Source: an uncultured Phycisphaeraceae bacterium
GTDB taxonomy: Bacteria; Planctomycetota; Phycisphaerae; Phycisphaerales; UBA1924
Direction of reading: 5' to 3'
DNA length: 64,000 bases
Assembly: GCA_964435785.1 (NCBI GenBank)
Contig: CAYTAH010000002.1
Location: 11,438-75,437 of the forward strand
Shown here: one piece after another, positions 8,359 through 48,471 of the stretch
How the letters are laid out: every line of letters starts with the position of its first letter
Position numbering within the stretch: position 1 is the first letter of the stretch
Made by a program: the position numbers and the translations under genes
Notes under the pieces: generated by a model
What the model saw: the letters and a program-made list of their open reading frames with translations, nothing else
Databases searched by the model: none
Told to the model about the DNA's origin: nothing

Positions 8359-10401
8359 ATGCGCTGCGTGCACGGGCTCCGACTTCACCAGACGGAGAAG
8401 GAGAACCCCCATGAAGCCCCGGTACACCCGCCGCGTGCGTGGGCTGGTGGGACGGCGCTCGCCGCAGTGATGACGTGGTCAGCGCCGCCCTGCGCTGCGC
8501 AGGAGTGCGTTTGGCGAGCATCCAACCCGGACGCCTCCTGGGGGCGCGTCATGGCCACCGATGAGGTCCGCCGGGAGACCGTGCTCTATTGGGCTCGCGT
8601 CATGTATCCATTCCCGTGCGAGACATGGACGTGGGATGGTGACCGGTGGACGCTCCGCGGCACGGAGGGTCCTCCGGCCCGTGACCAGGCGGCCATGGTC
8701 TTCGACGCGGCGCGTGGCGAGACGCTGCTCTTCGGCGGGCTGGGCGGTGTCCGGTACGGCGACACGTGGACCTGGGACGGGGCGAGGTGGACGCTCGAGA
8801 CGACCGATGGGCCGTCGCCGCGTCGGGCGCACGCGATGGCGTACGACCCCGCACGCGGTGAGGTGGTGCTGTTCGGAGGGCGCGCGGCCGAGCTCAGTGG
8901 CGAGACATGGATCTGGAATGGTGAGGCGTGGCGCCTTGCATCCACCACCGGGCCCGCTGCGCGGGCGCGTCACGGCATGGCCTATGACCCGATCAGCGGC
9001 GAGGTGCTGCTCTGCTGCGGTGCGAACGACACCCAGTTCTTGAGCGATACCTGGAGCTGGGATGGCGGCGCGTGGACGCTGCGTTCGCCGGGAAACTCAC
9101 TGTTCCGGGCGGCGGGAGCCGCCATGGCGTTGGACGATTCGTCTGGGAGCGTCATCCGCTTCGGGGGGGATGTCCCCGACGACGGCTTGAACAACGGGGT
9201 CACCGATGAGACGTACGCGTGGGATGGAACCGCGTGGCACCGGGTGCATAGCGCCGAGCCTGGCGCAAGGTCCTCTTGCGGGATGGCGCCCGATCCGGTG
9301 CGGCCGGGGCTCATCCTCTTCGGCGGCTACGACGGGCTCGTCAGCCACTACAGCGACATGTGGCGCTGGAGTTCGGGTGATTGGGAGCTGATGGGATTGA
9401 CCTCGCTGGAGATCCCTTACCCGGTCGGTCCTCTCGTGTTTGATTCCGTTCGTGCGCATGCGCTGTTTGTTCCGCAGGGTGAAGCCCGAGATTCGTGGCC
9501 CTGGGTCTGGGACGGATCGCTCTGGCGAGCTTCCGACATGCCGCGCCGGCGGCTCTCGAGCGGGGGCGCCGCGGCGTTCGACGAGGCGCGAGGCCAACTG
9601 GTCCTGCTGTCCGGGGCGTCGACCTGGCTGTGGGATGGCGAGCAGTGGCACGAGCGGGTAGTCCCCGGTCCCGGAGAGCGTCTGCATCACGCGATGGCCT
9701 TCGACCGCGCCGGCGGCCACGTCCTTCTCTTCGGGGGATCGACGGGAGGGAACGCGGCCGGCGACACGTGGCTGTGGGACGGTGACGCGTGGACGCACGC
9801 GGCGGCGCAGGGTCCCTCACCGCGCTGGGGAGCGGCTCTGGCCTTCGATGAGGCCGGAGGGAGGCTCGTTCTCTTCGGCGGCACGGACGGGACAGAACTC
9901 TCCGGCCAGACGTGGGGGTGGACAGGATTCGGCTGGGAGCTCCTCTCGGAGGATGGGCCCTCGCCCCGATTCGCGGGCGCGATGGCGTACGCCCCGCAGG
10001 TCGGCGGCCTGCTCCTGACCGGGGGGACGACCGGCGAGTACGAGCAGCCGCTCGCCGACTCTTGGCTATGGCGTGGCGGAGCGTGGAGCGAGATCTCCCT
10101 GGACGGCCTGTCCGGGCGGGCGCACCACTCCATGCGGCTCGACACGGCGGACGAGGAGCTCATGGCCTTCGGCGGGAAGGATGGGCCCAACCACCTCGCC
10201 GACCTGCGCGTGTTCGTGTTGGATTGTGGCGATGCGTGCCGCGTCGACTGGAACGGAGATTCGAGCGTGGACACGCGCGACGTCGTCGGGTTCCTGCTCG
10301 CCTGGGCGAACGGTGAGCCGGGGGCCGACTGGGATGGTGACGGCACGATCGGCGCCCAAGACGTCATCGCCTTCCTGAGCGACTGGGGCGCCGGCTGCTG
10401 A
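8359..10401 (+). CDS. Kelch/galactose-oxidase-type beta-propeller repeat protein with C-terminal dockerin-like module ending AGC
   Basis: 11 repeats of 'TW.WDG..W' spaced about 50 aa apart. The C-terminus has two 'DW[ND]GD...D' EF-hand-like loops and ends '..FLSDWGAGC'. The start is ambiguous (see finding). Confidence 0.75.
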   Translation: MRCVHGLRLHQTEKENPHEAPVHPPRAWAGGTALAAVMTWSAPPCAAQECVWRASNPDASWGRVMATDEVRRETVLYWARVMYPFPCETWTWDGDRWTLRGTEGPPARDQAAMVFDAARGETLLFGGLGGVRYGDTWTWDGARWTLETTDGPSPRRAHAMAYDPARGEVVLFGGRAAELSGETWIWNGEAWRLASTTGPAARARHGMAYDPISGEVLLCCGANDTQFLSDTWSWDGGAWTLRSPGNSLFRAAGAAMALDDSSGSVIRFGGDVPDDGLNNGVTDETYAWDGTAWHRVHSAEPGARSSCGMAPDPVRPGLILFGGYDGLVSHYSDMWRWSSGDWELMGLTSLEIPYPVGPLVFDSVRAHALFVPQGEARDSWPWVWDGSLWRASDMPRRRLSSGGAAAFDEARGQLVLLSGASTWLWDGEQWHERVVPGPGERLHHAMAFDRAGGHVLLFGGSTGGNAAGDTWLWDGDAWTHAAAQGPSPRWGAALAFDEAGGRLVLFGGTDGTELSGQTWGWTGFGWELLSEDGPSPRFAGAMAYAPQVGGLLLTGGTTGEYEQPLADSWLWRGGAWSEISLDGLSGRAHHSMRLDTADEELMAFGGKDGPNHLADLRVFVLDCGDACRVDWNGDSSVDTRDVVGFLLAWANGEPGADWDGDGTIGAQDVIAFLSDWGAGC

Positions 10402-10408
10402 GGCGTCG

Positions 10409-11086
10409 CTACTTCAGCCGTCCCTTGCTGCGCTGCTGCTTCTTGGGCGTGACGTGGAAGGTGGCCGCGCACTGACCCACGCGGCGCTCCTTCGAGCCGG
10501 GCTTGGTGATCGCCTGCACGATCTCCATGTCGATGGTCGTGTTGAACTCGACGCCCGACGCGGCGAGGGCGTGGATGTCGTCGCGGGGCGTGATGCGGTA
10601 GATCGCCGGGCCGAGGCAGGGGCGGAGGAACTTGTACTCAAGGTGCTTGCAGACGACGGTGAAGTCCCCGCCGCAGATGCCGAAGACGTACGTGCCGCCG
10701 GCGATCTCGGAGTTGCCCAGGAGGGCCGCGCCGGCCATGGCGTTGTACCAGTTGCGGTTGAATCGCCGGAAGGGGAGGATCGCCTGGAAGGTCTTGGCGT
10801 CCAAGCGCTTCATGCGGATGCCGGAGTGGAAGGCGTAGGGCAGCCAGATCAGCGAGCAGACCCGGTGCCAGAAGTTGTTGCGGGTGCTCAGGCGGCTGAC
10901 GAAGGCCTCCATGCGCTCGAAGAGCGTTCGCTTCTGCCGCCTGCCGGGCGTGATGGGGGCGGCCGGGCTGTCCACCGGCTGGCCCGCGGGCTCGGAGCGC
11001 GCCGCGGCACTCTCCACGGGGGGCGGTGGAGCAGAGGCCGCCGGGGTCTGCGGCCGCCCGGGGATGCTCGTGTGCGTGGGGCTCAA
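10409..11086 (-). CDS. hotdog-fold thioesterase-like protein (DUF4442/PaaI-like), Pro-rich N-terminal extension
   Basis: 'FNRNWYNAMAGAALLGNSEIAGG' resembles the PaaI-like active-site helix region. An alternative start exists at ATG 10912. Confidence 0.45.
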   Translation of the reverse strand: MSPTHTSIPGRPQTPAASAPPPPVESAAARSEPAGQPVDSPAAPITPGRRQKRTLFERMEAFVSRLSTRNNFWHRVCSLIWLPYAFHSGIRMKRLDAKTFQAILPFRRFNRNWYNAMAGAALLGNSEIAGGTYVFGICGGDFTVVCKHLEYKFLRPCLGPAIYRITPRDDIHALAASGVEFNTTIDMEIVQAITKPGSKERRVGQCAATFHVTPKKQQRSKGRLK

Positions 11087-11143
11087 GGGGCTTGCCTCGG
11101 TCCATGATATGCCCCCGCCCCGACCCTGCCGGGCGTGGGCGGA

Positions 11144-12133
11144 TCAGAAGGCCGGCAGGGGCGCGGGCGCGAGGCTGTACCAGCCCTTCTCGTTGCGGCT
11201 GACCGTCACCAGCGGCGTGGCGGGATCGTGATCGAGGGCGAGGGTCCAGCCAAGACTCACGGCCGCGTCGAGGTACCAGCGCCGGCTCACCATGCTGGTG
11301 TAGGGCTCGACGTCGTAGGCGAGGCTGTAGGCGGCCCCGAGGTGCCAGGTGGTGGGCATGACATCGGGCGTGAAGACGATGGTCCGGCCCTGCACGTCGG
11401 TGAATCCAACGGCCTGCTGCCCCCAGGTGTGGCCGGGGGTGAGCAGGACCCAGATCCCCGGCTCGGTCTCGGTCCGGCGCATCTGGGCGGGGACCCGCGG
11501 GAGCTCGTCGCGCTGGGGGACGTAGCCGGGAGGGAATGCCCGGGGCGAATCGACGAGCGAGAGCTTCGGCTCGATGGGGAGCAGGTGATCGCGGTAGTAC
11601 GTCCGCGTCATGACCGAGCTGTTGGCGAGGGCGTCGCGCCACTCACGGGCCTGGGCCCAGATGCGGGCGTTGGGGAACGTGAGCTTGACCTCCCGGGCAT
11701 CACCGGAGGCCTCCCCCGGTCCGGCGACCCAGTCGGGAGTCTCACCGGCGCGGGAGCGGCGGGTCAGCCCGCCGGCGTGATCGAAGTGGAGGTGCGTGAC
11801 GATCACGGCGTCGATCTGCGCGGGGTCGAGCCCGGCCTCGGTCACGGCCGTCTCGACCGTTCGGTCCTCGAGGCCGAAGATGTCGCGCATTTTGGGGTCG
11901 AGCTTGTCGCCGGTGCCGGTCTCGATCACGATGCGCCGGGCGCGTCCGAGCTGGGGATCGGGCTTCTCGCTCTCGAGGAGCAGGCAGTTGTGGGCGAGGG
12001 CGATGCGGTTGCGATCGTCCGGCTGGACGTCGCGCGTCCAGACCACGCGGGGGATGATGCCGAACATGGAGCCGCCGTCGAGCAGCAGCCGCCCGGCGCT
12101 CAGATGCCTCCAGTGATAGCGGACGTCCTTCAT
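11144..12133 (-). CDS. MBL-fold metallo-hydrolase
   Basis: HxHxDH motif 'VTHLHFDHAGG'. Later His/Asp ligands, including 'TPGHTWG'. Confidence 0.85.
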   Translation of the reverse strand: MKDVRYHWRHLSAGRLLLDGGSMFGIIPRVVWTRDVQPDDRNRIALAHNCLLLESEKPDPQLGRARRIVIETGTGDKLDPKMRDIFGLEDRTVETAVTEAGLDPAQIDAVIVTHLHFDHAGGLTRRSRAGETPDWVAGPGEASGDAREVKLTFPNARIWAQAREWRDALANSSVMTRTYYRDHLLPIEPKLSLVDSPRAFPPGYVPQRDELPRVPAQMRRTETEPGIWVLLTPGHTWGQQAVGFTDVQGRTIVFTPDVMPTTWHLGAAYSLAYDVEPYTSMVSRRWYLDAAVSLGWTLALDHDPATPLVTVSRNEKGWYSLAPAPLPAF

Positions 12134-39201: not shown

Positions 39202-40308
39202 TCATCGGTCGGAGGACGCGAGCGGCCGCGCCCGCACGCCGCTGCGGGTGATCTGGACTGGCTGGATCGTGCCGTCGCCGTTGAACCGCATCTCGTCGAT
39301 GCACACCTGGCGGTGATGGGGGTCGTCGTCCCCGAGCGGGCGGCGGTGGTAGACGATGTACCAGGTGTCGGCATCGGGCACGGGAATGACGGAGTGGTGC
39401 CCGGCGCCGGTGGCGACGTCGGGGTCCTGCTGGAGGATCTTGCCGATGCGCTCGAAGGGGCCGAGGGGCGAGTCGCCGATGGCGTAGGCGACGGAGTAGT
39501 TCGGCCCGCCCCAGCCGCCCTCGGACCACATGAGGTAGTAGCGGTCGCGCCCGTCGACCGGGCGCTTGAAGACGAACGGGCCCTCGACGTAGTGCTCGGG
39601 CGTGATCTCCTTGAACATCTCGTCGTCGTCGAAGGGCTCGAGGCTGAGCAGGTCGGGGGCGAGCTTCACGACGTTGCAGTGCCTCCAGCCGCCGTAGTAC
39701 ATGTAGTGCTGGCCGTCGTCGTCGCGGAAGACGAACTGGTCGATGGGCTGGGCGCCGTTGTGGAACTTGTCGATCAGGGGCTTGCCGAGGGCGTCGCGGT
39801 AGGGCCCCTCGGGCGAGTCCGCGACGGCGACGCCGATGCCGCCGACCTCCTCGTCGGACTGGATGTCGTTGGCGGCGAAGAAGAGGTAGTAGCGGTCGTT
39901 GGCGTGGATCACCGAGGGCGCCCAGAGGGCGTAGTGGCCCCAGGAGATGTCGGCGAGGTCGAGCACGCGCGGGTGCTTGGTCCAGTTGACGAGGTCGGGC
40001 GAGCTGAAGGCGTCGAGGAAGGTTTGCTTGGAGTACTGTGGGTTGATCGGGCGCTGGCTCGCGGCGTCGCCGCCGGATGCCTCCTGCGGGGGCGGCTCGG
40101 AGACGCTGTCGCCCCAGTCGTCGCTCCAGGTCGGGAAGATCCAGTAGCGATCGCCGTAGACGATCGCCTCGGGGTCGGCGTACCAGCCGGGGAGGACGGG
40201 GTTGCCAGACAAGCCGTCGGCTTTGAAAGCAGAGGGCGCGGGCTGCGCCGGCGAGGATGTCGCGAGCGCCGCAAGCACCACGGGGATCATTGATCGGCAA
40301 TAGTGCAT
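39202..40308 (-). CDS. glycoside hydrolase family 43
   Basis: 'NPVLPGWYADPEAIVYGDRYWIFPT', 'WAPSVI', 'IDQFVFRDDDG' and 'YVEGPFVFK'. The ATG at 40308 shares one nt with the HepT stop. Alternative starts at 40317 (GTG) and 40290. Confidence 0.85.
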   Translation of the reverse strand: MHYCRSMIPVVLAALATSSPAQPAPSAFKADGLSGNPVLPGWYADPEAIVYGDRYWIFPTWSDDWGDSVSEPPPQEASGGDAASQRPINPQYSKQTFLDAFSSPDLVNWTKHPRVLDLADISWGHYALWAPSVIHANDRYYLFFAANDIQSDEEVGGIGVAVADSPEGPYRDALGKPLIDKFHNGAQPIDQFVFRDDDGQHYMYYGGWRHCNVVKLAPDLLSLEPFDDDEMFKEITPEHYVEGPFVFKRPVDGRDRYYLMWSEGGWGGPNYSVAYAIGDSPLGPFERIGKILQQDPDVATGAGHHSVIPVPDADTWYIVYHRRPLGDDDPHHRQVCIDEMRFNGDGTIQPVQITRSGVRARPLASSDR

Positions 40309-40682
40309 CAAGGGCACTCCGACCAGTGTTGTTTCAGGGCGTCCTCAACGCTCTCGACAAGTTTCGGCAGATCCTGTTGAACCACCTTCCAGATCGAGTC
40401 GTTGTCAAGGTCGTGGTACGCATGCACCAGGATGTGACGCATCCCCACCATCTTCGGCCAAGGGAGCTCGGGAACGCGGGCTCGACCCACATCGGTCACC
40501 CGCGCGGCCGCCTCGCCGATCTCCAGTACGCAGTCTTTGAGCGCGCGGCGGAGCATGTGGTCGGTATCTAGATCGGCGCGGGTGCGACCGGGAACGAACG
40601 ACAGTGCCTGACGGGCCGCGTCGAGCATGTGCTGCAGTCGCGTGCGGTCCGTGAGCTGGTCGTCCTCGCCCTTACGCGGCAT
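40308..40682 (-). CDS. hepT: HepT-like (DUF86) RNase toxin, type VII TA
   Basis: Rx4HxY motif 'RHILVHAY'. 124 aa. Overlaps the upstream nucleotidyltransferase gene by 11 nt. Confidence 0.85.
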   Translation of the reverse strand: MPRKGEDDQLTDRTRLQHMLDAARQALSFVPGRTRADLDTDHMLRRALKDCVLEIGEAAARVTDVGRARVPELPWPKMVGMRHILVHAYHDLDNDSIWKVVQQDLPKLVESVEDALKQHWSECP

Positions 40683-41034
40683 AGAGCGTCCGCGCCTCCT
40701 TGACGACATCCTCCCGAAAGTATCTCGAGAGGAATCCAGGCGTCTTGAGGTCCACCTCGCGTCCAAGAAGCTCGCGGAGTTCCATGAGCATCCCACCGAG
40801 GTCCAGCAGGCTGGGCGTCTGACCGGGTGGGAACTCGACGAGCACATCTATATCGCTGTCCGGGCCGAAATCATCGCGGAGGATCGAGCCGAACAGAGCC
40901 AAGCGGGCGACACCGTGCCGCCGGCAGAACTCAGCGATCTTGTCGTCGGGTATGTTCACACCGTGGAGTTGCACCTGCCGTCTCCTCGCGTCCTTCCAGT
41001 ATACCTCTGAATGGCCGGGGCGGATCCGTTTCAT
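40672..41034 (-). CDS. mntA: MntA-like minimal nucleotidyltransferase antitoxin
   Basis: 'LFGSILRDDFGPDSDIDVLVEF' is the GSx(n)DxD NTase motif. The ATG overlaps the TPR gene stop (ATGA). Confidence 0.85.
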   Translation of the reverse strand: MKRIRPGHSEVYWKDARRRQVQLHGVNIPDDKIAEFCRRHGVARLALFGSILRDDFGPDSDIDVLVEFPPGQTPSLLDLGGMLMELRELLGREVDLKTPGFLSRYFREDVVKEARTLYAA

Positions 41035-41849
41035 CGGCCGTCAGACCCATGATGCCGGCGGGCCCGCGAGCGCAGTCGGGCGAGGTCGTCTCGGGCTCTC
41101 TGGTAGTCGGGGTTCGCCGCGAGTGACTTCTCGTAAAAGGAGATCGCCTGACGCCTCGTCCCTCGACACTCCGCGATGTACCCCAGGTTTGCGAGCGCGA
41201 CGTAATCGCCGGGGTCTCGCTCCAGCGCGTTCATCGCAGCGTGCTCGGCTTGATCATGCTCGTGCAGAGCCGTGAGCGTGCCCGCAAGGTCGGCCCAGGC
41301 CATTGCGTCATCGGGGGCCAGTGCGACCGCTGACTCGAGAAGCGCTCGCGAGAGGTCGAATGACCCAACCTGCCCGGCTGATGCGCCCACGTTCCTCAGG
41401 AACTCTGGATCGTTGCTGAACCCGGTGCGCAACCGCTCCGTCTCAGCCAGGAACTCTTTGGCACCCAGCACGCGCCTCACTGCGTCGAGGTAACCCCACG
41501 CGAGTGCCGCATTCGCGGGCGCCAACTCGAGCGCGCGACGACGTTCGCGGAGCTCGGCATCGGGTCGGTCGAGTCGTTGCAGCACGATTGCGCGGTTCGC
41601 CGCGACCAACGCATCGTCCGAAAACTCCTCCGCCAGTTGATCCAAGATCCCGAGCGCTTCCTGCAATCCACCGGCATCCGAGAGGAGGTTGGCAAGGGTG
41701 CCTCGATACCGTGGGCTCGACGGCTCTGGGTCGTGTGCTCCGGCAAGGAGGTCAATCGCCGCGCCCAACCGTCCCGCCCCCGCCAGCGCGAGCGCGCGAT
41801 CGACGCAGTCCTCACGGGGCGACCCGGGACTCTCCGCCGGCTCGTTCAT
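41031..41849 (-). CDS. TPR repeat protein
   Basis: Several 34-aa TPR-like units ('AMAWADLAGTLTALHEHDQAEHAAMNALERDP', 'ALANLGYIAECRGTRRQAISFYEKSLAANP'). The ATG overlaps the MCC beta stop (ATGA). Confidence 0.75.
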   Translation of the reverse strand: MNEPAESPGSPREDCVDRALALAGAGRLGAAIDLLAGAHDPEPSSPRYRGTLANLLSDAGGLQEALGILDQLAEEFSDDALVAANRAIVLQRLDRPDAELRERRRALELAPANAALAWGYLDAVRRVLGAKEFLAETERLRTGFSNDPEFLRNVGASAGQVGSFDLSRALLESAVALAPDDAMAWADLAGTLTALHEHDQAEHAAMNALERDPGDYVALANLGYIAECRGTRRQAISFYEKSLAANPDYQRARDDLARLRSRARRHHGSDGR

Positions 41850-43663
41850 GTCTGCAGCACCCCCGTCCGAAACTCCCTCGAATAGTCCCAGTTCGCCGTG
41901 GCGCCCAGCGCCGCGATCAGTTCCTCCCGCGTCCGGTGCGGCTCGATGATCCGGTCCACCCAGCCGCGGGCGGCCCCATGACGGATGTCCTGCTGCTCGT
42001 TGTAGCTCGCCCGCACCGCGTCCATGATCGCCTTGTGCGTCTCGGGGTCGATCTTCTCGCCCTTGCGCTCGCGGCTCTTCTCCTCGATCATCGCCAGCGT
42101 CCCCGTCGCCTGGGCCGCGCCCATCACGGCGCACTTGGCGCTGGGCCAGGCGAAGCTGATCGTCTGCTCGAACGCGCGCCCGCACATCGCGTAATTGCCC
42201 GCCCCGTAGCTGCTCCCCATGATGACGACGAGCTTGGGCACCACGCAGTTGCTCATCGCGTTGACCAGCTTGGCCCCGGCGCGGATGATCCCGCCCTGCT
42301 CGCTGTCGCGCCCCACCATGAAGCCGGTCGTGTCGTGCAGGAACACCAGCGGGATCTTCCGCTGGTTGCAGTCCATGATGAAGCGGGCCGCCTTGTCCGC
42401 CGAGTCGTCGTAGATCACGCGCGGCATGTTCGTCGCCTTGTGCGGCCCGGCCCGGCCGCCGGGCATGACCCGGGTCGTGAGCTTGCCCTGGTTGGCGACG
42501 ATCCCGACCGGCCGGCCCCCGATCCGGGCGTAGCCGCAGACGAGCGACTGCCCGTACTCGGCCTTGTACTCGTCGAAGTCGGGGGCGAGGGACTCGTGCC
42601 CGTCGGTGTTCGGCACCGCCCGCGCATCGACGATGCAGGCGATGATCTCCTCGACGTCGTACTGCTGGCCCGGCTTGTCGGTGAAGAGGGTGTAGATGTC
42701 CGAGGACGATCGGAAGGCTGAAGCGGCGACCGAGTGACGGAGTGACGAAGCGACGAAGGGCTCTGCATCGAAGCCGGCAGCATCGCTCGGCCGCCCCTCC
42801 GTCGCTTCGTCGCTGCGTCGCTTCGTCGCTCCGTACTTTCCCACCAGCTCCCGCACCCGCCGGATGCACGCCTTGTCATCCGGCTCCCGGAAGTCGATCG
42901 TCCCCGAGATCTGCGCGTGCATCTCCGCCCCGCCCAGCTCCTCGTCGCTGACCTCCTGCCCGATCGCCGCTCGCACGAGCGCCGGCCCTGCGAGGTAGAG
43001 CCCCGAGCCCTCGGTCATGAGCAGCGTGTCGCACAGCACCGGCAGGTACCCGCCCCCCGCCACGCAATACCCCATGATCGCCGCGATCTGCGGCACGCCC
43101 TCCGCCGAGAGCACGCTGTTGAGGTAGAAGATTCGCCCGAAGTCGTCGGTATCCGGGAAGACGTCCTCCTGCATCGGCAGGAACACCCCCGCCGAGTCCA
43201 CCAGGTAGATCAGCGGCAGCCGGCACTGGCGGGCGATGTGCTGCGCCCGGATGATCTTCTTGCACGTCATCGGGAAGAAGGCGCCCGCCTTCACCGTCGC
43301 GTCGTTGGCGATGATCATGTGCGGGCGGCCGTGGATGACGCCGACGCCGGTGACCACGCCCGCGGCGGGGGCTCCGCCCTGCTCGGCGTACATGTTGAAC
43401 GCCGCCCACAGGCCCAGTTCGAGGAAGCCGGGGATCTCGGCGGCGTGGGGATCGGTGGTTGACGCGCCACTCCCGAGCTTGCGCTCGGGGCCCGTGGACG
43501 CGTCCGGAGGATCCACCAGCCGCGCGATGCGCTCGCGGGCCGTGAGACGACCCTTCTCGTGCTGACGCTCAATCGCCTTCGCGCCGCCGCCCTGGCGGAT
43601 CTTCGCCTCGGACGAGAGAAACTGGGCTGTGATTTCGCGGAGGCCGTTGGTCGGTTCGGGCAA
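41846..43663 (-). CDS. methylcrotonyl-CoA carboxylase carboxyltransferase (beta) subunit / acyl-CoA carboxylase beta
   Basis: 'GGGAKAIERQHEKGRLTARERI', 'GGAFFPMT.KK..RAQ.IA' and 'GSSYGAGNYAMCGRAF'. At 605 aa it is about 70 aa longer than typical, owing to two insertions. Confidence 0.92.
   Translation of the reverse strand: MPEPTNGLREITAQFLSSEAKIRQGGGAKAIERQHEKGRLTARERIARLVDPPDASTGPERKLGSGASTTDPHAAEIPGFLELGLWAAFNMYAEQGGAPAAGVVTGVGVIHGRPHMIIANDATVKAGAFFPMTCKKIIRAQHIARQCRLPLIYLVDSAGVFLPMQEDVFPDTDDFGRIFYLNSVLSAEGVPQIAAIMGYCVAGGGYLPVLCDTLLMTEGSGLYLAGPALVRAAIGQEVSDEELGGAEMHAQISGTIDFREPDDKACIRRVRELVGKYGATKRRSDEATEGRPSDAAGFDAEPFVASSLRHSVAASAFRSSSDIYTLFTDKPGQQYDVEEIIACIVDARAVPNTDGHESLAPDFDEYKAEYGQSLVCGYARIGGRPVGIVANQGKLTTRVMPGGRAGPHKATNMPRVIYDDSADKAARFIMDCNQRKIPLVFLHDTTGFMVGRDSEQGGIIRAGAKLVNAMSNCVVPKLVVIMGSSYGAGNYAMCGRAFEQTISFAWPSAKCAVMGAAQATGTLAMIEEKSRERKGEKIDPETHKAIMDAVRASYNEQQDIRHGAARGWVDRIIEPHRTREELIAALGATANWDYSREFRTGVLQT
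42726..42833. repeat. imperfect inverted repeat built from tandem octamers, in-frame inside the MCC beta gene
   Basis: The left arm (42726-42760) has three GNAGYGAC-type octamers. The right arm (42795-42833) has four CGTCGCTN octamers. The arms are about 29/37 complementary around a 34-nt loop. Confidence 0.7.
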
Positions 43664-47240: not shown

Positions 47241-47326
47241 GCGGACGTGGCGGAATTGGCAGACGCGCTAGGTTCAGGTCCTAGTGGGAGTAAAATCCCG
47301 TGGAGGTTCGACTCCTCTCGTCCGCA
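47241..47326 (+). tRNA. tRNA-Leu (anticodon CAG)
   Basis: Acceptor stem GCGGACG/CGTCCGC plus discriminator A. Anticodon stem CTAGG/CCTAG with loop TTCAGGT. Long variable arm. T-loop GGTTCGACTCC. Confidence 0.93.
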
Positions 47327-47335
47327 CTTTGACCC

Positions 47336-47373
47336 GCCGGCCCGGGCTCTCCCGGGCCGGCCGCGTTTTTCTT
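47336..47373 (+). terminator. rho-independent terminator after tRNA-Leu
   Basis: GCCGGCCCGGG-CTCT-CCCGGGCCGGC (11-bp perfect stem) followed by CGCGTTTTTCTT. Confidence 0.7.
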
Positions 47374-47421
47374 CATCCCCTATCCCTCCGCCCTCATCCC
47401 TTCCCACTATCCTCGCCCCCC

Positions 47422-48471
47422 ATGGGCCTGATCTACTGCGGCATCGACGAGGCGGGGTACGGGCCGTTGCTCGGGCCGCTGTGCGTCGGATTCGCCGCGT
47501 TCCGGGTGGCCGAATGGGACGCGAGGGCCGGAGCCCCGGACCTGTGGAAACTGCTCAACCGGGCCGTCTGCCGCGATGGTGGCGATAAGCGCCGGCGGAT
47601 CGCCGTGGCCGACTCGAAGAAGCTCAAGCTCTCCAACCAGCTCAAGACCAAGCACCCGCTGACGCACCTGGAGCGGGGGGTCCTGTCTTTTGCTGGCCTC
47701 GTGCGATCGATCGCGGAGGAGGGGGAGAAAGGCGATTCAAACCAGGAAGATGGCATCGAGGCATCGAGGCACCAAGGCATCGAGTCGTTGGAGAGCGACG
47801 CGAGCCTCTTCGCGGCGCTCGGCGTGAGGCTCGAGCCGCACGGGTGGTACGGGGGAGAGGCGGTGGGCCTTCCCCACGGGTGCACGGCGAAGCAGATCGC
47901 GATCGCGCGGAACAAGCTCGCGCTGGCGTGCGAGGCGGCCGGCGTCGAGCCGGCGGCGCTCGCGTGCATCGCGGTGGGGGAACGGGAGTTCAACGAGGTC
48001 GTGCGCACGGGCGGAAGCAAGGGGCACGTGACAGGCTACTGCTTCGCACGCTACCTGCGACGCGTGATCGAGCGGTGGGGGAGCGGCCCCGACGAGGTGC
48101 GCGTCGTGTGCGACAGCCACGGCGGGCGCACGTGCTACACCGGCATGATCGAGGCCGCGCTCCGCGGCACGGGCCTGGCTATCGAGACGCTCGAGGAGAG
48201 CGATCGCTGCAGCCGCTACCGCGTGGGCGAGCGCGTCGGCCTGCTCTTCCGGCCGGAGGCCGAGGACGCCCACCTGCCGGTGGCCCTCGCCTCGATGACC
48301 GCCAAGCTCGTCCGCGAGCTGGCCATGGCCCGCTTCAACCGCTACTGGTGCACGCGCATGCCGGAGTTGAAGCCGACTGCGGGTTACACGCTCGACGCCC
48401 GCCGCTGGCTCAACGACGCGAACGCTATCGTGCACGAAGACGAGCGCGAGGTGATGGTGCGGATGGCGTGA
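47422..48471 (+). CDS. divergent RNase HII-family (type 2 RNase H-like) protein
   Basis: N-terminal 'YCGIDEAGYGPLLGPL' matches the RNase HII DEAG.G active-site motif. C-terminal 'VALASMTAK..RE..M..F'. The rest is divergent and carries an insertion. Confidence 0.65.
   Translation: MGLIYCGIDEAGYGPLLGPLCVGFAAFRVAEWDARAGAPDLWKLLNRAVCRDGGDKRRRIAVADSKKLKLSNQLKTKHPLTHLERGVLSFAGLVRSIAEEGEKGDSNQEDGIEASRHQGIESLESDASLFAALGVRLEPHGWYGGEAVGLPHGCTAKQIAIARNKLALACEAAGVEPAALACIAVGEREFNEVVRTGGSKGHVTGYCFARYLRRVIERWGSGPDEVRVVCDSHGGRTCYTGMIEAALRGTGLAIETLEESDRCSRYRVGERVGLLFRPEAEDAHLPVALASMTAKLVRELAMARFNRYWCTRMPELKPTAGYTLDARRWLNDANAIVHEDEREVMVRMA
47753..47784 (+). repeat. four tandem octamers GCATCGAG / GCATCGAG / GCACCAAG / GCATCGAG inside a CDS
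   Basis: Read directly from the sequence. It lies in a locally lower-GC insertion encoding 'EDGIEASRHQGIES'. Confidence 0.7.

Follow-up and report, generated by a model that had tools for sequence, protein, structure and literature searches.

The palindromic elements of Rickettsia (RPEs), reportedly described by Ogata and colleagues in 2000, and the cyanobacterial STRR sequences, said to have been described by Mazel and co-workers in 1990, are two kinds of short dispersed repeat with which the element studied here invites comparison. Further points of comparison are foldback elements, in which terminal inverted repeats of short tandem repeats surround a variable centre, and the intervening sequences (IVSs) of rRNA, which are excised by RNase III. 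Here we set against these systems a hairpin-forming insert of ~109 nt that lies in frame in a carboxyltransferase gene of an uncultured Phycisphaeraceae bacterium, within a stretch of 64,000 nucleotides (assembly GCA_964435785.1, contig CAYTAH010000002.1, positions 11,438 to 75,437) that was analysed as a whole and is called the window below. The insert is built of two inverted arrays of an 8-nt unit, and it is probably one convergent-pair copy of a dispersed, mainly Planctomycetota repeat family that is carried by the enzyme as a translated passenger and is not a part of it.

The described systems differ in their units. The CGTC/GTAG REPs, which include RPE-4 and RPE-6, are single short stem-loops, and the RPE/CGTC unit comprises an 8-9-bp stem starting with AT pairs, a 4-5-nt loop, a terminal CGTC tag and a CCA tail (Di Nocera et al., 2013; PMC3733652). 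Dispersed heptamer arrays are known with the unit GGGAATC in Xanthomonas and GGGGAYT in Nostoc, and their preference for four units has been attributed to G-quadruplex formation (Rehm et al., 2015; PMC4692102). IVSs of 23S rRNA that carry an open reading frame (ORF) for a PF05635, or four-helix-bundle (Avd-like), protein are referred to in PMC3936711, which cites Ralph and McClelland (1993) for them.

The palindrome in the window (42726-42832) ranks first among the inverted repeats of the whole 64 kb. Its inverted-repeat arms (42726-42760 and 42795-42829) are 35 nt each, 83% complementary and 34 nt apart, and Tandem Repeats Finder (TRF) reported period-8 arrays in both, with 4.4 copies of CGTCGCTT at 42800-42834 and ~3.5 copies at 42728-42758. 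An earlier reading of the bare sequence (the sequence-only reading) had described an in-frame palindrome of tandem octamers within a carboxyltransferase gene; repeat search, TRF and ORF translation all bear this out, and the peptide quoted at the time is indeed present in the 605-aa ORF. The same reading had counted four octamers in the right arm, as we do, and three in the left arm, where we find four when the units are read in register, giving a 4+4 element in which the G runs of the two arms face each other. One arm includes a GTGACG variant, shared by neighbouring units in the window, that would give TGA if read in the sense direction; here it is read antisense. The predicted RNA fold of the insert reached -68.6 kcal/mol (z = -3.7), a value that none of 200 shuffles equalled, and the DNA fold (z = -4.2) was likewise better than all shuffles. 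Base composition is not foreign. An Rfam scan by E-value returned only plant miRNA-precursor hairpin noise, far under the gathering scores, and no terminator or promoter pattern was found.

The host protein matches PF01039 (Carboxyl_trans) over residues 92-591, in both the N and C halves (E = 4.8e-126), and the closest matches among solved structures are M. tuberculosis AccD1 (4q0g, 4.4e-113) and the beta subunit of P. aeruginosa methylcrotonoyl-CoA carboxylase (MCC; 3u9r, 5.5e-109). On both counts the gene is, by sequence match, that of an acyl-CoA carboxylase carboxyltransferase beta subunit, and its closest relatives are proteins from metagenome-assembled genomes (MAGs) of Phycisphaerales that are named acyl-CoA carboxylase beta or methylcrotonoyl-CoA carboxylase. 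The location in a short variable linker, as first suggested from the sequence, agrees with the structural comparison: in HMMER alignments residues ~279-314 are unmatched in 4q0g and 3u9r and lie between the N- and C-terminal domains, and an AlphaFold2 model of moderate quality (mean predicted local distance difference test score, pLDDT, 66), which we used for the disorder call alone, has pLDDT <50 for exactly residues 279-313. Orthologues range from 548 to 695 aa, a spread that is due mostly to this linker. In other orthologues the same linker holds unlike inserts (P0016, P0017, P0021; P0008, P0083, P0089; alignment A1, columns ~370-560), one of them a ~50-aa helical module (RFSPDQLAERMADP...) and others up to ~100 aa long, and in P0014 and P0017, which are tree neighbours, it is wholly different. 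Separately, a variable N-terminal stretch (...ASTGPERKLGS...; residues 53-78 of the host protein; L001 gene at 10001-11857) is missing from P0067, P0069 and P0081 and is present in duplicate in P0002 (ASTSPERELGGIPASTSPERKLGS); it may be another repeat-derived insert.

The octamer arrays are not confined to this gene. Scanning one genome per species with the exact 22-nt pattern GCGACGRAGCGACGRAGCGACG gave at least 119 stretches, and among the matches listed 104 of 119 stretches were from Planctomycetota, namely MAGs of Phycisphaerales, Tepidisphaerales and 'Planctomycetales' and one Isosphaeraceae, with up to nine loci per MAG. A survey of the pattern loci and the window yielded 190 arrays, among which four units are by far the commonest number (n=121, against 24 arrays of three and 22 of five). 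The module that emerges consists of four GCGACGRA octamers after a G-rich stretch ending in RA, closed by GGG(G), with GGGGGGGGGGAA(GCGACGGA)2(GCGACGAA)2GGGG as the family consensus. An A stands at -1 in 162/190 arrays and G at +1 to +3 in 141-170/190; the unit GCGACGAA was counted 340 times, GCGACGGA 290 times and GCGACGCA 33 times, and the A/G pattern at unit position 7 varies from copy to copy. Modules occur singly and in pairs, and the pairs within 250 nt are convergent in 17 cases (11 distinct loci, gaps 28-133 nt), same-strand in 24 and divergent in none. In a crude gene call based on GC content at third codon positions (GC3), 77 of 143 arrays were genic, 60 ambiguous and 6 strictly intergenic. 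Isolated intergenic copies follow a co-oriented gene in 25 of 34 cases. Other octamers in four copies (GGCACGAA, GGCATCGA, GTGACGAA and more) are common in the surveyed loci. In IMG/VR the pattern occurs in 4 stretches (L127-L130) from 3 viral contigs with a GC content of 0.66-0.69, mostly directly after the stop codons or before the start codons of neighbouring ORFs. These viral stretches hold GCGACGRA, GTGACGRA and GGCACGWA arrays of 3-16 units, several of them at such sites and one a convergent pair. Literature searches brought up neither the DNA motif nor the peptides it encodes, and those on Planctomycetes repeats and on PF05635 gave no description of the octamer family or of arrays flanking PF05635 genes.

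Roughly one copy in two sits in frame within a gene. For 46 of the arrays, an open frame spans the array and GC3 indicates coding sequence to either side of it. Hosts of pairs that were confirmed by Pfam are LepA, UvrB, a radical-SAM LipA-like protein and Mfd/TRCF, and further Pfam-confirmed hosts are DnaE (two single modules), MutS, DNA polymerase III alpha, ValRS, ClpB, PurL and aconitase. Sense copies read ATKRRSDE or ATERRSDG and antisense copies FVASSLRR or SVAPSLRR, and all six frames of idealised arrays are free of stop codons. In LepA the insert occupies a beta-turn whose length is 16 residues in 73/118 relatives and 18 in the nearest ones that lack arrays (82% identity); at the same site P0125 has a pair of a different octamer, GGCACWGA. 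This turn, which joins RGITIK to LNxIDTPGH, is a hot spot for insertions (P0121-P0240), with a conserved 48-aa acidic insert in at least nine sequences and two types of octamer pair, in P0121 and P0125, and at one of the LepA loci (L172) a small palindrome, CACCGGCTTCCAGCCGGTCGG, occurs in duplicate as well. The sequence-only reading had held that it would fall if orthologues from unrelated phyla carried the peptide with no palindrome and no other copies of the motif occurred in the genome; since many further copies are found in related genomes, some of them in frame in unrelated housekeeping genes, that case does not arise. In-frame copies of this sort are what drew attention to the RPEs of Rickettsia.

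With RPEs, then, the window element has in common that it is a palindromic repeat of ~100 nt, of a kind found in frame in unrelated genes including housekeeping genes, and the octamer family shares with them translation as a surface-loop peptide, many copies per genome and the lack of an identified transposase. The presence in frame in several unrelated genes without stops is a functional likeness only. Compared with the RPE/CGTC unit, the window arms are direct GCGACGRA arrays without an internal stem, the loop is unconserved, the host is of another phylum and there is no sequence relation; membership in the CGTC-REPs or RPEs was rejected on unit structure. The RPE- or MITE-like character proposed by the sequence-only reading (MITEs being miniature inverted-repeat transposable elements) thus holds as a description of behaviour, but not as membership in the RPE and CGTC-REP families. 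The heptamers of Xanthomonas and Nostoc resemble the octamer family in several ways: dispersed arrays, a short unit whose length is not divisible by three, a preference for four units, frequent convergent pairs, and a favoured place on the sense strand directly downstream of stop codons. The octamer family has one short unit, a mode of four and convergent pairs, as a four-unit dispersed short tandem repeat should, but its 8-nt unit has no G-tracts and it is frequent inside genes, whereas the heptamers are mostly intergenic. Because the octamer lacks G-tracts, the G-quadruplex account of the four units cannot apply to it. Small size and convergent, hairpin-forming doublets, with not one divergent pair, are shared with the group of REP/REPIN doublets, MITEs and foldback elements, and by analogy with these the single modules are likely remnants of doublets. 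Terminal inverted repeats made of short tandem units around a variable centre are a likeness to foldback elements in particular. Like a 23S IVS, finally, the window element has complementary ends that form a long stem around a loop; unlike it, the loop is only 33 nt long and holds no ORF, and the whole lies within the coding region of an mRNA and must be translated through. Terminal arrays that enclose a PF05635 ORF are not a feature of the window element.

Within the carboxylase gene itself we compared ten orthologous loci at the DNA level. The peptides T(K/E)RRSDEATEG ... PFVA(S/P)SLRRSVA recur, around an unrelated middle, in several orthologues that are 75-85% identical, and on the coding strand five loci (L001-L005) read (GCGACGRA)x4 + GGG, a loop of 28-40 nt, and CCC + (TYCGTCGC)x4. 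A sixth (L006) has the 5' arm alone and a seventh (L007) three arrays of other octamers; in P0003 the 5' arm is of the GAGACGGA type throughout and there is no 3' arm, in P0024 the arms are decayed, and in P0014 there are none. The insert is lineage-specific, a point that the sequence-only reading had marked for checking: among 98 classifiable orthologues both arms occur in 5, the sense arm only in 4 and a remnant in 1, the other 88 having none. A neighbour-joining tree, drawn without support values, unites the host protein of the window with P0001, P0002, P0004, P0005 and P0003, the degenerate one, in a single clade, and within this Phycisphaerales clade the insert is inherited vertically. 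All intact members of the clade have 4+4 units, and in each of them it is the second unit of the 5' arm that deviates. Unit number does not vary among six orthologues or between two near-identical assemblies, the window agreeing in this with an independent assembly at 98% protein identity; a metagenome scan with a flank pattern for population variants gave 37 stretches, none of which was the carboxylase gene. In another species the same gene (L007, 11063-11154) contains a perfect 23-nt inverted repeat around a 46-nt loop (GTAGATCGGCTCTCCGAGCCGAT ... ATCGGCTCGGAGAGCCGATCTAC). This repeat is likewise in frame, at another variable site (aa ~346-360), and P0030 and P0057 have the related peptides VARLSEP...GSESRAT; it represents a further family of in-frame palindromes, unrelated to the octamers.

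What is conserved in the arms appears to be the nucleic acid. Arm identity between clade members is 0.78-0.97, as compared with 0.48-0.67 at four-fold synonymous sites, which we judge to be near saturation for a GC3 of ~0.9, the chance level of ~0.4 being our own estimate. The loops, 28-40 nt long, are unrelated between species apart from their ends, and their global identity of 0.54-0.68 is roughly the background for short GC-rich sequence, a level set by judgement without a shuffled control. In genic copies, third codon positions show no excess of mismatches to GCGACGRA over first and second positions, the arrays considered being those with no more than one mismatch in each unit. As an 8-nt unit cycles through all three codon phases, the lack of a third-position excess points to the nucleic acid and not the peptide as what is kept. 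The arrays evolve in concert: besides the uniform arm of P0003, the 3' arm of the LepA insert is (GCGACGGA)x4 in L095 and (GTGGCGRA)x4 in its orthologue L172, with the loop nearly unchanged.

A possible parent element came from a search for inverted arrays at wider spacing, which led to two loci, in a Tepidisphaerales (L042) and a Phycisphaeraceae (L050) MAG. In both, convergent GCGACGRA arrays enclose ~425 nt encoding a 130-aa protein of PF05635, the '23S rRNA-intervening sequence protein' family (E = 5.7e-35), which has a weak bAvd match too. A jackhmmer search of all fetched DNA (~1.1 Mb) found no PF05635 ORFs besides these two, and none in the 64-kb window. Both cassettes lie at the same site of the DNA polymerase III alpha gene, between the NTPase and finger domains. 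In both MAGs, which belong to different orders, the polymerase frame is open through the whole cassette and the PF05635 gene is read in another frame; several further array clusters lie in the polymerase gene of L042 (2886-7262), with the L050 counterpart at 1-1200.

Searching PLSDB with the PF05635 ORF (tblastn) gave 34 plasmid records, mostly of heterocystous cyanobacteria, and we inspected 14 of these loci (L173-L186) for flanking arrays. Reverse-complementary arrays of a 7-8-nt unit, mostly about four units long, were found on both sides in 8/14, with an exact match of the two consensus units in 5 and a near one in 3. Examples are AGTAGGG x7.9 and TCCCTAC x4.9 in Nostoc, AGGGTGT x4.3 and its complement x4.3 in Calothrix, octamers x4.0 and x3.4 in Picosynechococcus, and GAGGGCAG x4.4 and CTCCTGCC x4.2 in Gemmatirosa. 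Three more of the 14 have an upstream array with a one- to two-unit complement downstream, two have a downstream array only, in one case adjoining an ISL3 transposase gene, and one has no array. The locus on an Azospirillum lipoferum plasmid (L186) is inside large-subunit (LSU) rRNA (Rfam 564 bits, model positions 829-1664) and is thus a classical 23S IVS, with a stem of about four heptamers. Arrays of this kind accordingly bracket PF05635 genes in Cyanobacteriota, Gemmatimonadota and Pseudomonadota, and in Planctomycetota they do so at one orthologous site. The plasmid PF05635 genes sit tightly between co-oriented operon genes (cas6-ORF-cas4, cas10-ORF-cmr3, or between ribonucleotide reductase subunits), a context reported for such genes by Zhang et al. 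(2014), where repeats are unmentioned. A viral source was also considered and rejected; a search of viral contigs found no PF05635 relatives. We put forward, tentatively, the possibility that the window pair is an ORF-less miniature of a widespread and undescribed class of cassette, in which a PF05635 gene stands between two convergent arrays, each with about four units of 7-8 nt. Members of this class, whether complete or miniature, would settle in 23S rRNA, in the spacers of operons and, among Planctomycetota, in frame within ORFs.

The features of the window are listed in Table 1, together with two that lie elsewhere in it. The array in the ORF at 47284 is a second in-frame fourfold array, in a hypervariable loop of a conserved protein without a Pfam match at the thresholds applied; the near-identical L004 has the array, and the syntenic orthologues in L001, L002, L003 and L006 lack it. 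Downstream of the carboxylase gene, two overlapping small ORFs occupy the same position as L004 genes that match Pfam NTP_transf_2/Polbeta and HepT-like; judged by this positional match, they are probably an MNT/HEPN toxin-antitoxin pair.

Table 1. Features of the window discussed in the text (positions count from its first nucleotide; E, E-value of the family hidden Markov model (HMM) in nhmmer)
Feature	Coordinates	Strand	Description
Host gene, acyl-CoA carboxylase carboxyltransferase (beta) subunit, MCC-beta/AccD1-like	41846..43663	-	605 aa; predicted from ORF, PF01039 and PDB matches
5' arm (coding strand)	42794..42832	-	GGA + GCGACGAA GCGACGCA GCGACGAA GCGACGGA + GGGG; octamers at 42829-42798; encodes (G)ATKRRSDEATEG, residues ~278-290; E = 2.8e-11
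Loop/spacer	42761..42793	-	33 nt if measured from GGG to CCCC, 40 nt from array to array; encodes roughly RPSDAAGFDAE
Second module (3' arm on the coding strand)	42726..42760	+ (purine-rich)	GCGACCGA GTGACGGA GTGACGAA GCGACGAA (42726-42757) + GGG; encodes PFVASSLRHSVA(A), residues ~302-314; E = 2.1e-7
Two overlapping small ORFs	40308-41034	-	probable MNT/HEPN pair
ORF with second in-frame array	47284..48471		395-aa protein
Second in-frame array	47752-47784	+	(GGCATCGA)x4, one variant unit; read as GIEASRHQGIE

Taken together, these data are best explained if two modules, with their GGG ends facing, entered the linker of the carboxyltransferase in the ancestor of one Phycisphaerales clade. The insert would survive there owing to a length that keeps the frame, to the lack of stop codons in all six frames and to the position of its peptide in a disordered surface linker. 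The arms would be kept recognisable by processes acting on nucleic acid, namely homogenisation of neighbouring units and possibly recognition of the octamer; selection for the peptide or for pairing within the hairpin would have no part in this. Once transcribed into mRNA, the stem of ~35 bp could serve as a substrate of RNase III, by analogy with the processing of rRNA IVSs. The window element would then be a neutral or selfish passenger, and it may descend from a PF05635-type cassette.

Several observations weigh against a mobile, dispersed element of this kind. The pattern by which the array survey was ascertained requires three intact cores. Inverted arrays are present as in MITEs, but no target-site duplication or flanking direct repeat was found around 13 pairs, and no internal sequence is conserved between copies, whose loops are unrelated. 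No candidate for a mobilising enzyme was found, the fetched loci showing no transposase and no association with a RAYT (IS200/IS605-type) gene although no systematic screen was made. No recent pair of a filled and an empty site was recovered, and mobility is for this reason deduced from distribution only. In the 64 kb outside the two arms there are no further copies of the motif beyond chance, the family HMM matching the arms only, so that membership in the family rests on other genomes. Arms are also found at the same linker outside the clade described above, in P0026, P0006/7, P0024 and P0043, on at least four or five separate branches; this could be due either to recurrent insertion into the same short linker or to an ancient insertion with many losses, and we cannot tell which. 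As the L042 and L050 loci are orthologous, the PF05635 link in Planctomycetota is effectively one event. Lastly, the strong conservation of the GCGACG core could reflect some further function.

Another idea is that the arrays, in place of being selfish elements, are binding sites or footprints of a host DNA or RNA transaction, such as the sites of a dedicated four-site protein, a strand-polar signal, or templated additions to both 3' ends of a repaired double-strand break. The conservation of GCGACG is position-specific, with a free seventh position, the length of four units is fixed outside genes as well, and exclusively convergent pairs would be expected if each 3' end of a double-strand break were extended. 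There is also a strand bias, since the purine-rich strand is the sense strand in 59/88 genic copies (59 vs 29) and the strand of positive local GC skew in 61/85 (p = 7e-5). The skew result is, however, confounded with gene direction, no protein or template candidate was found, the concerted drift of octamers at orthologous sites is hard to square with strict sequence recognition, and the PF05635 cassettes offer a simpler source of convergent pairs; we therefore regard this explanation as unlikely.

We give somewhat less weight again to the hairpin as a selected cis-acting RNA or DNA structure that serves carboxylase expression, be it as a pause site or through mRNA stability or RNase III processing, as its very stable fold, its position exactly between two domains and the conservation of its arms well above synonymous sites might suggest. 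If arms are paired across loci they are as complementary as cognate arms (27.6 and 27.2 of 32, respectively; permutation p = 0.93), the variable seventh position (R) matches in only 11/36 unit pairs, and there is no covariation between arms, pointing to the conclusion that hairpin pairing itself is not what is conserved. The 5' arm stands alone in P0006/P0007 and the element is decayed in P0003 and P0024, most orthologues are armless, the module occurs singly and in unrelated genes too, and no Rfam family matched.

Local microsatellite growth, in which each side grew by slippage from an 8-nt seed, the inversion being incidental, is improbable. Arrays do homogenise internally, other octamers also form fourfold arrays (as GGCATCGA at 47752), and growth from one to four units adds 24 nt and is frame-neutral, which could explain why 60/77 genic arrays have four units. 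Four is nevertheless the mode outside genes too (31/66 of the other arrays), where three-unit arrays are also rarer than four-unit ones, and frame neutrality as the sole reason for four units was thus in part rejected; moreover, the same octamer with the same flanks occurs at >100 loci across orders, and the pairs always converge. The weakest alternative, and a very improbable one, is a phase-variable contingency locus in which gain or loss of an 8-nt unit switches the carboxylase: the sequence-only reading was right that a change of one unit, not being a multiple of three, shifts the frame, but phase variation finds no support, since all two-armed orthologues are 4+4, the window and the independent assembly agree in unit number, and the family has its other copies in essential genes, dnaE for one.

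Selfish repeats that lie in frame in essential genes were formerly a curiosity of Rickettsia; on the translated-passenger reading they would occur also in a phylum that is free-living and GC-rich, where the element is of a different structure. The set of hosts includes DNA polymerase III alpha, Mfd, UvrB, MutS, LepA, ClpB and tRNA synthetases, and the finding bears on annotation and orthology calls, on numerous 'hypothetical' peptides of the ATKRRSDE/FVASSLRR type, on the use of indels as phylogenetic signatures of Planctomycetota and on structure prediction for the host proteins. As four-unit preference and convergent pairing occur here where a G-quadruplex is not possible, the G-quadruplex explanation of the heptamers is called into question as well. 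The link to PF05635 provides a concrete candidate for the origin of short tandemly repeated dispersed sequences, and a candidate also for the role of this protein family in rRNA IVSs and inside cas operons. If it is true, the cyanobacterial STRR sequences, the heptamers of Xanthomonas and Nostoc, the rRNA IVSs and the in-frame hairpins would be one phenomenon, and the PF05635 protein would be a candidate mobility or maintenance factor.

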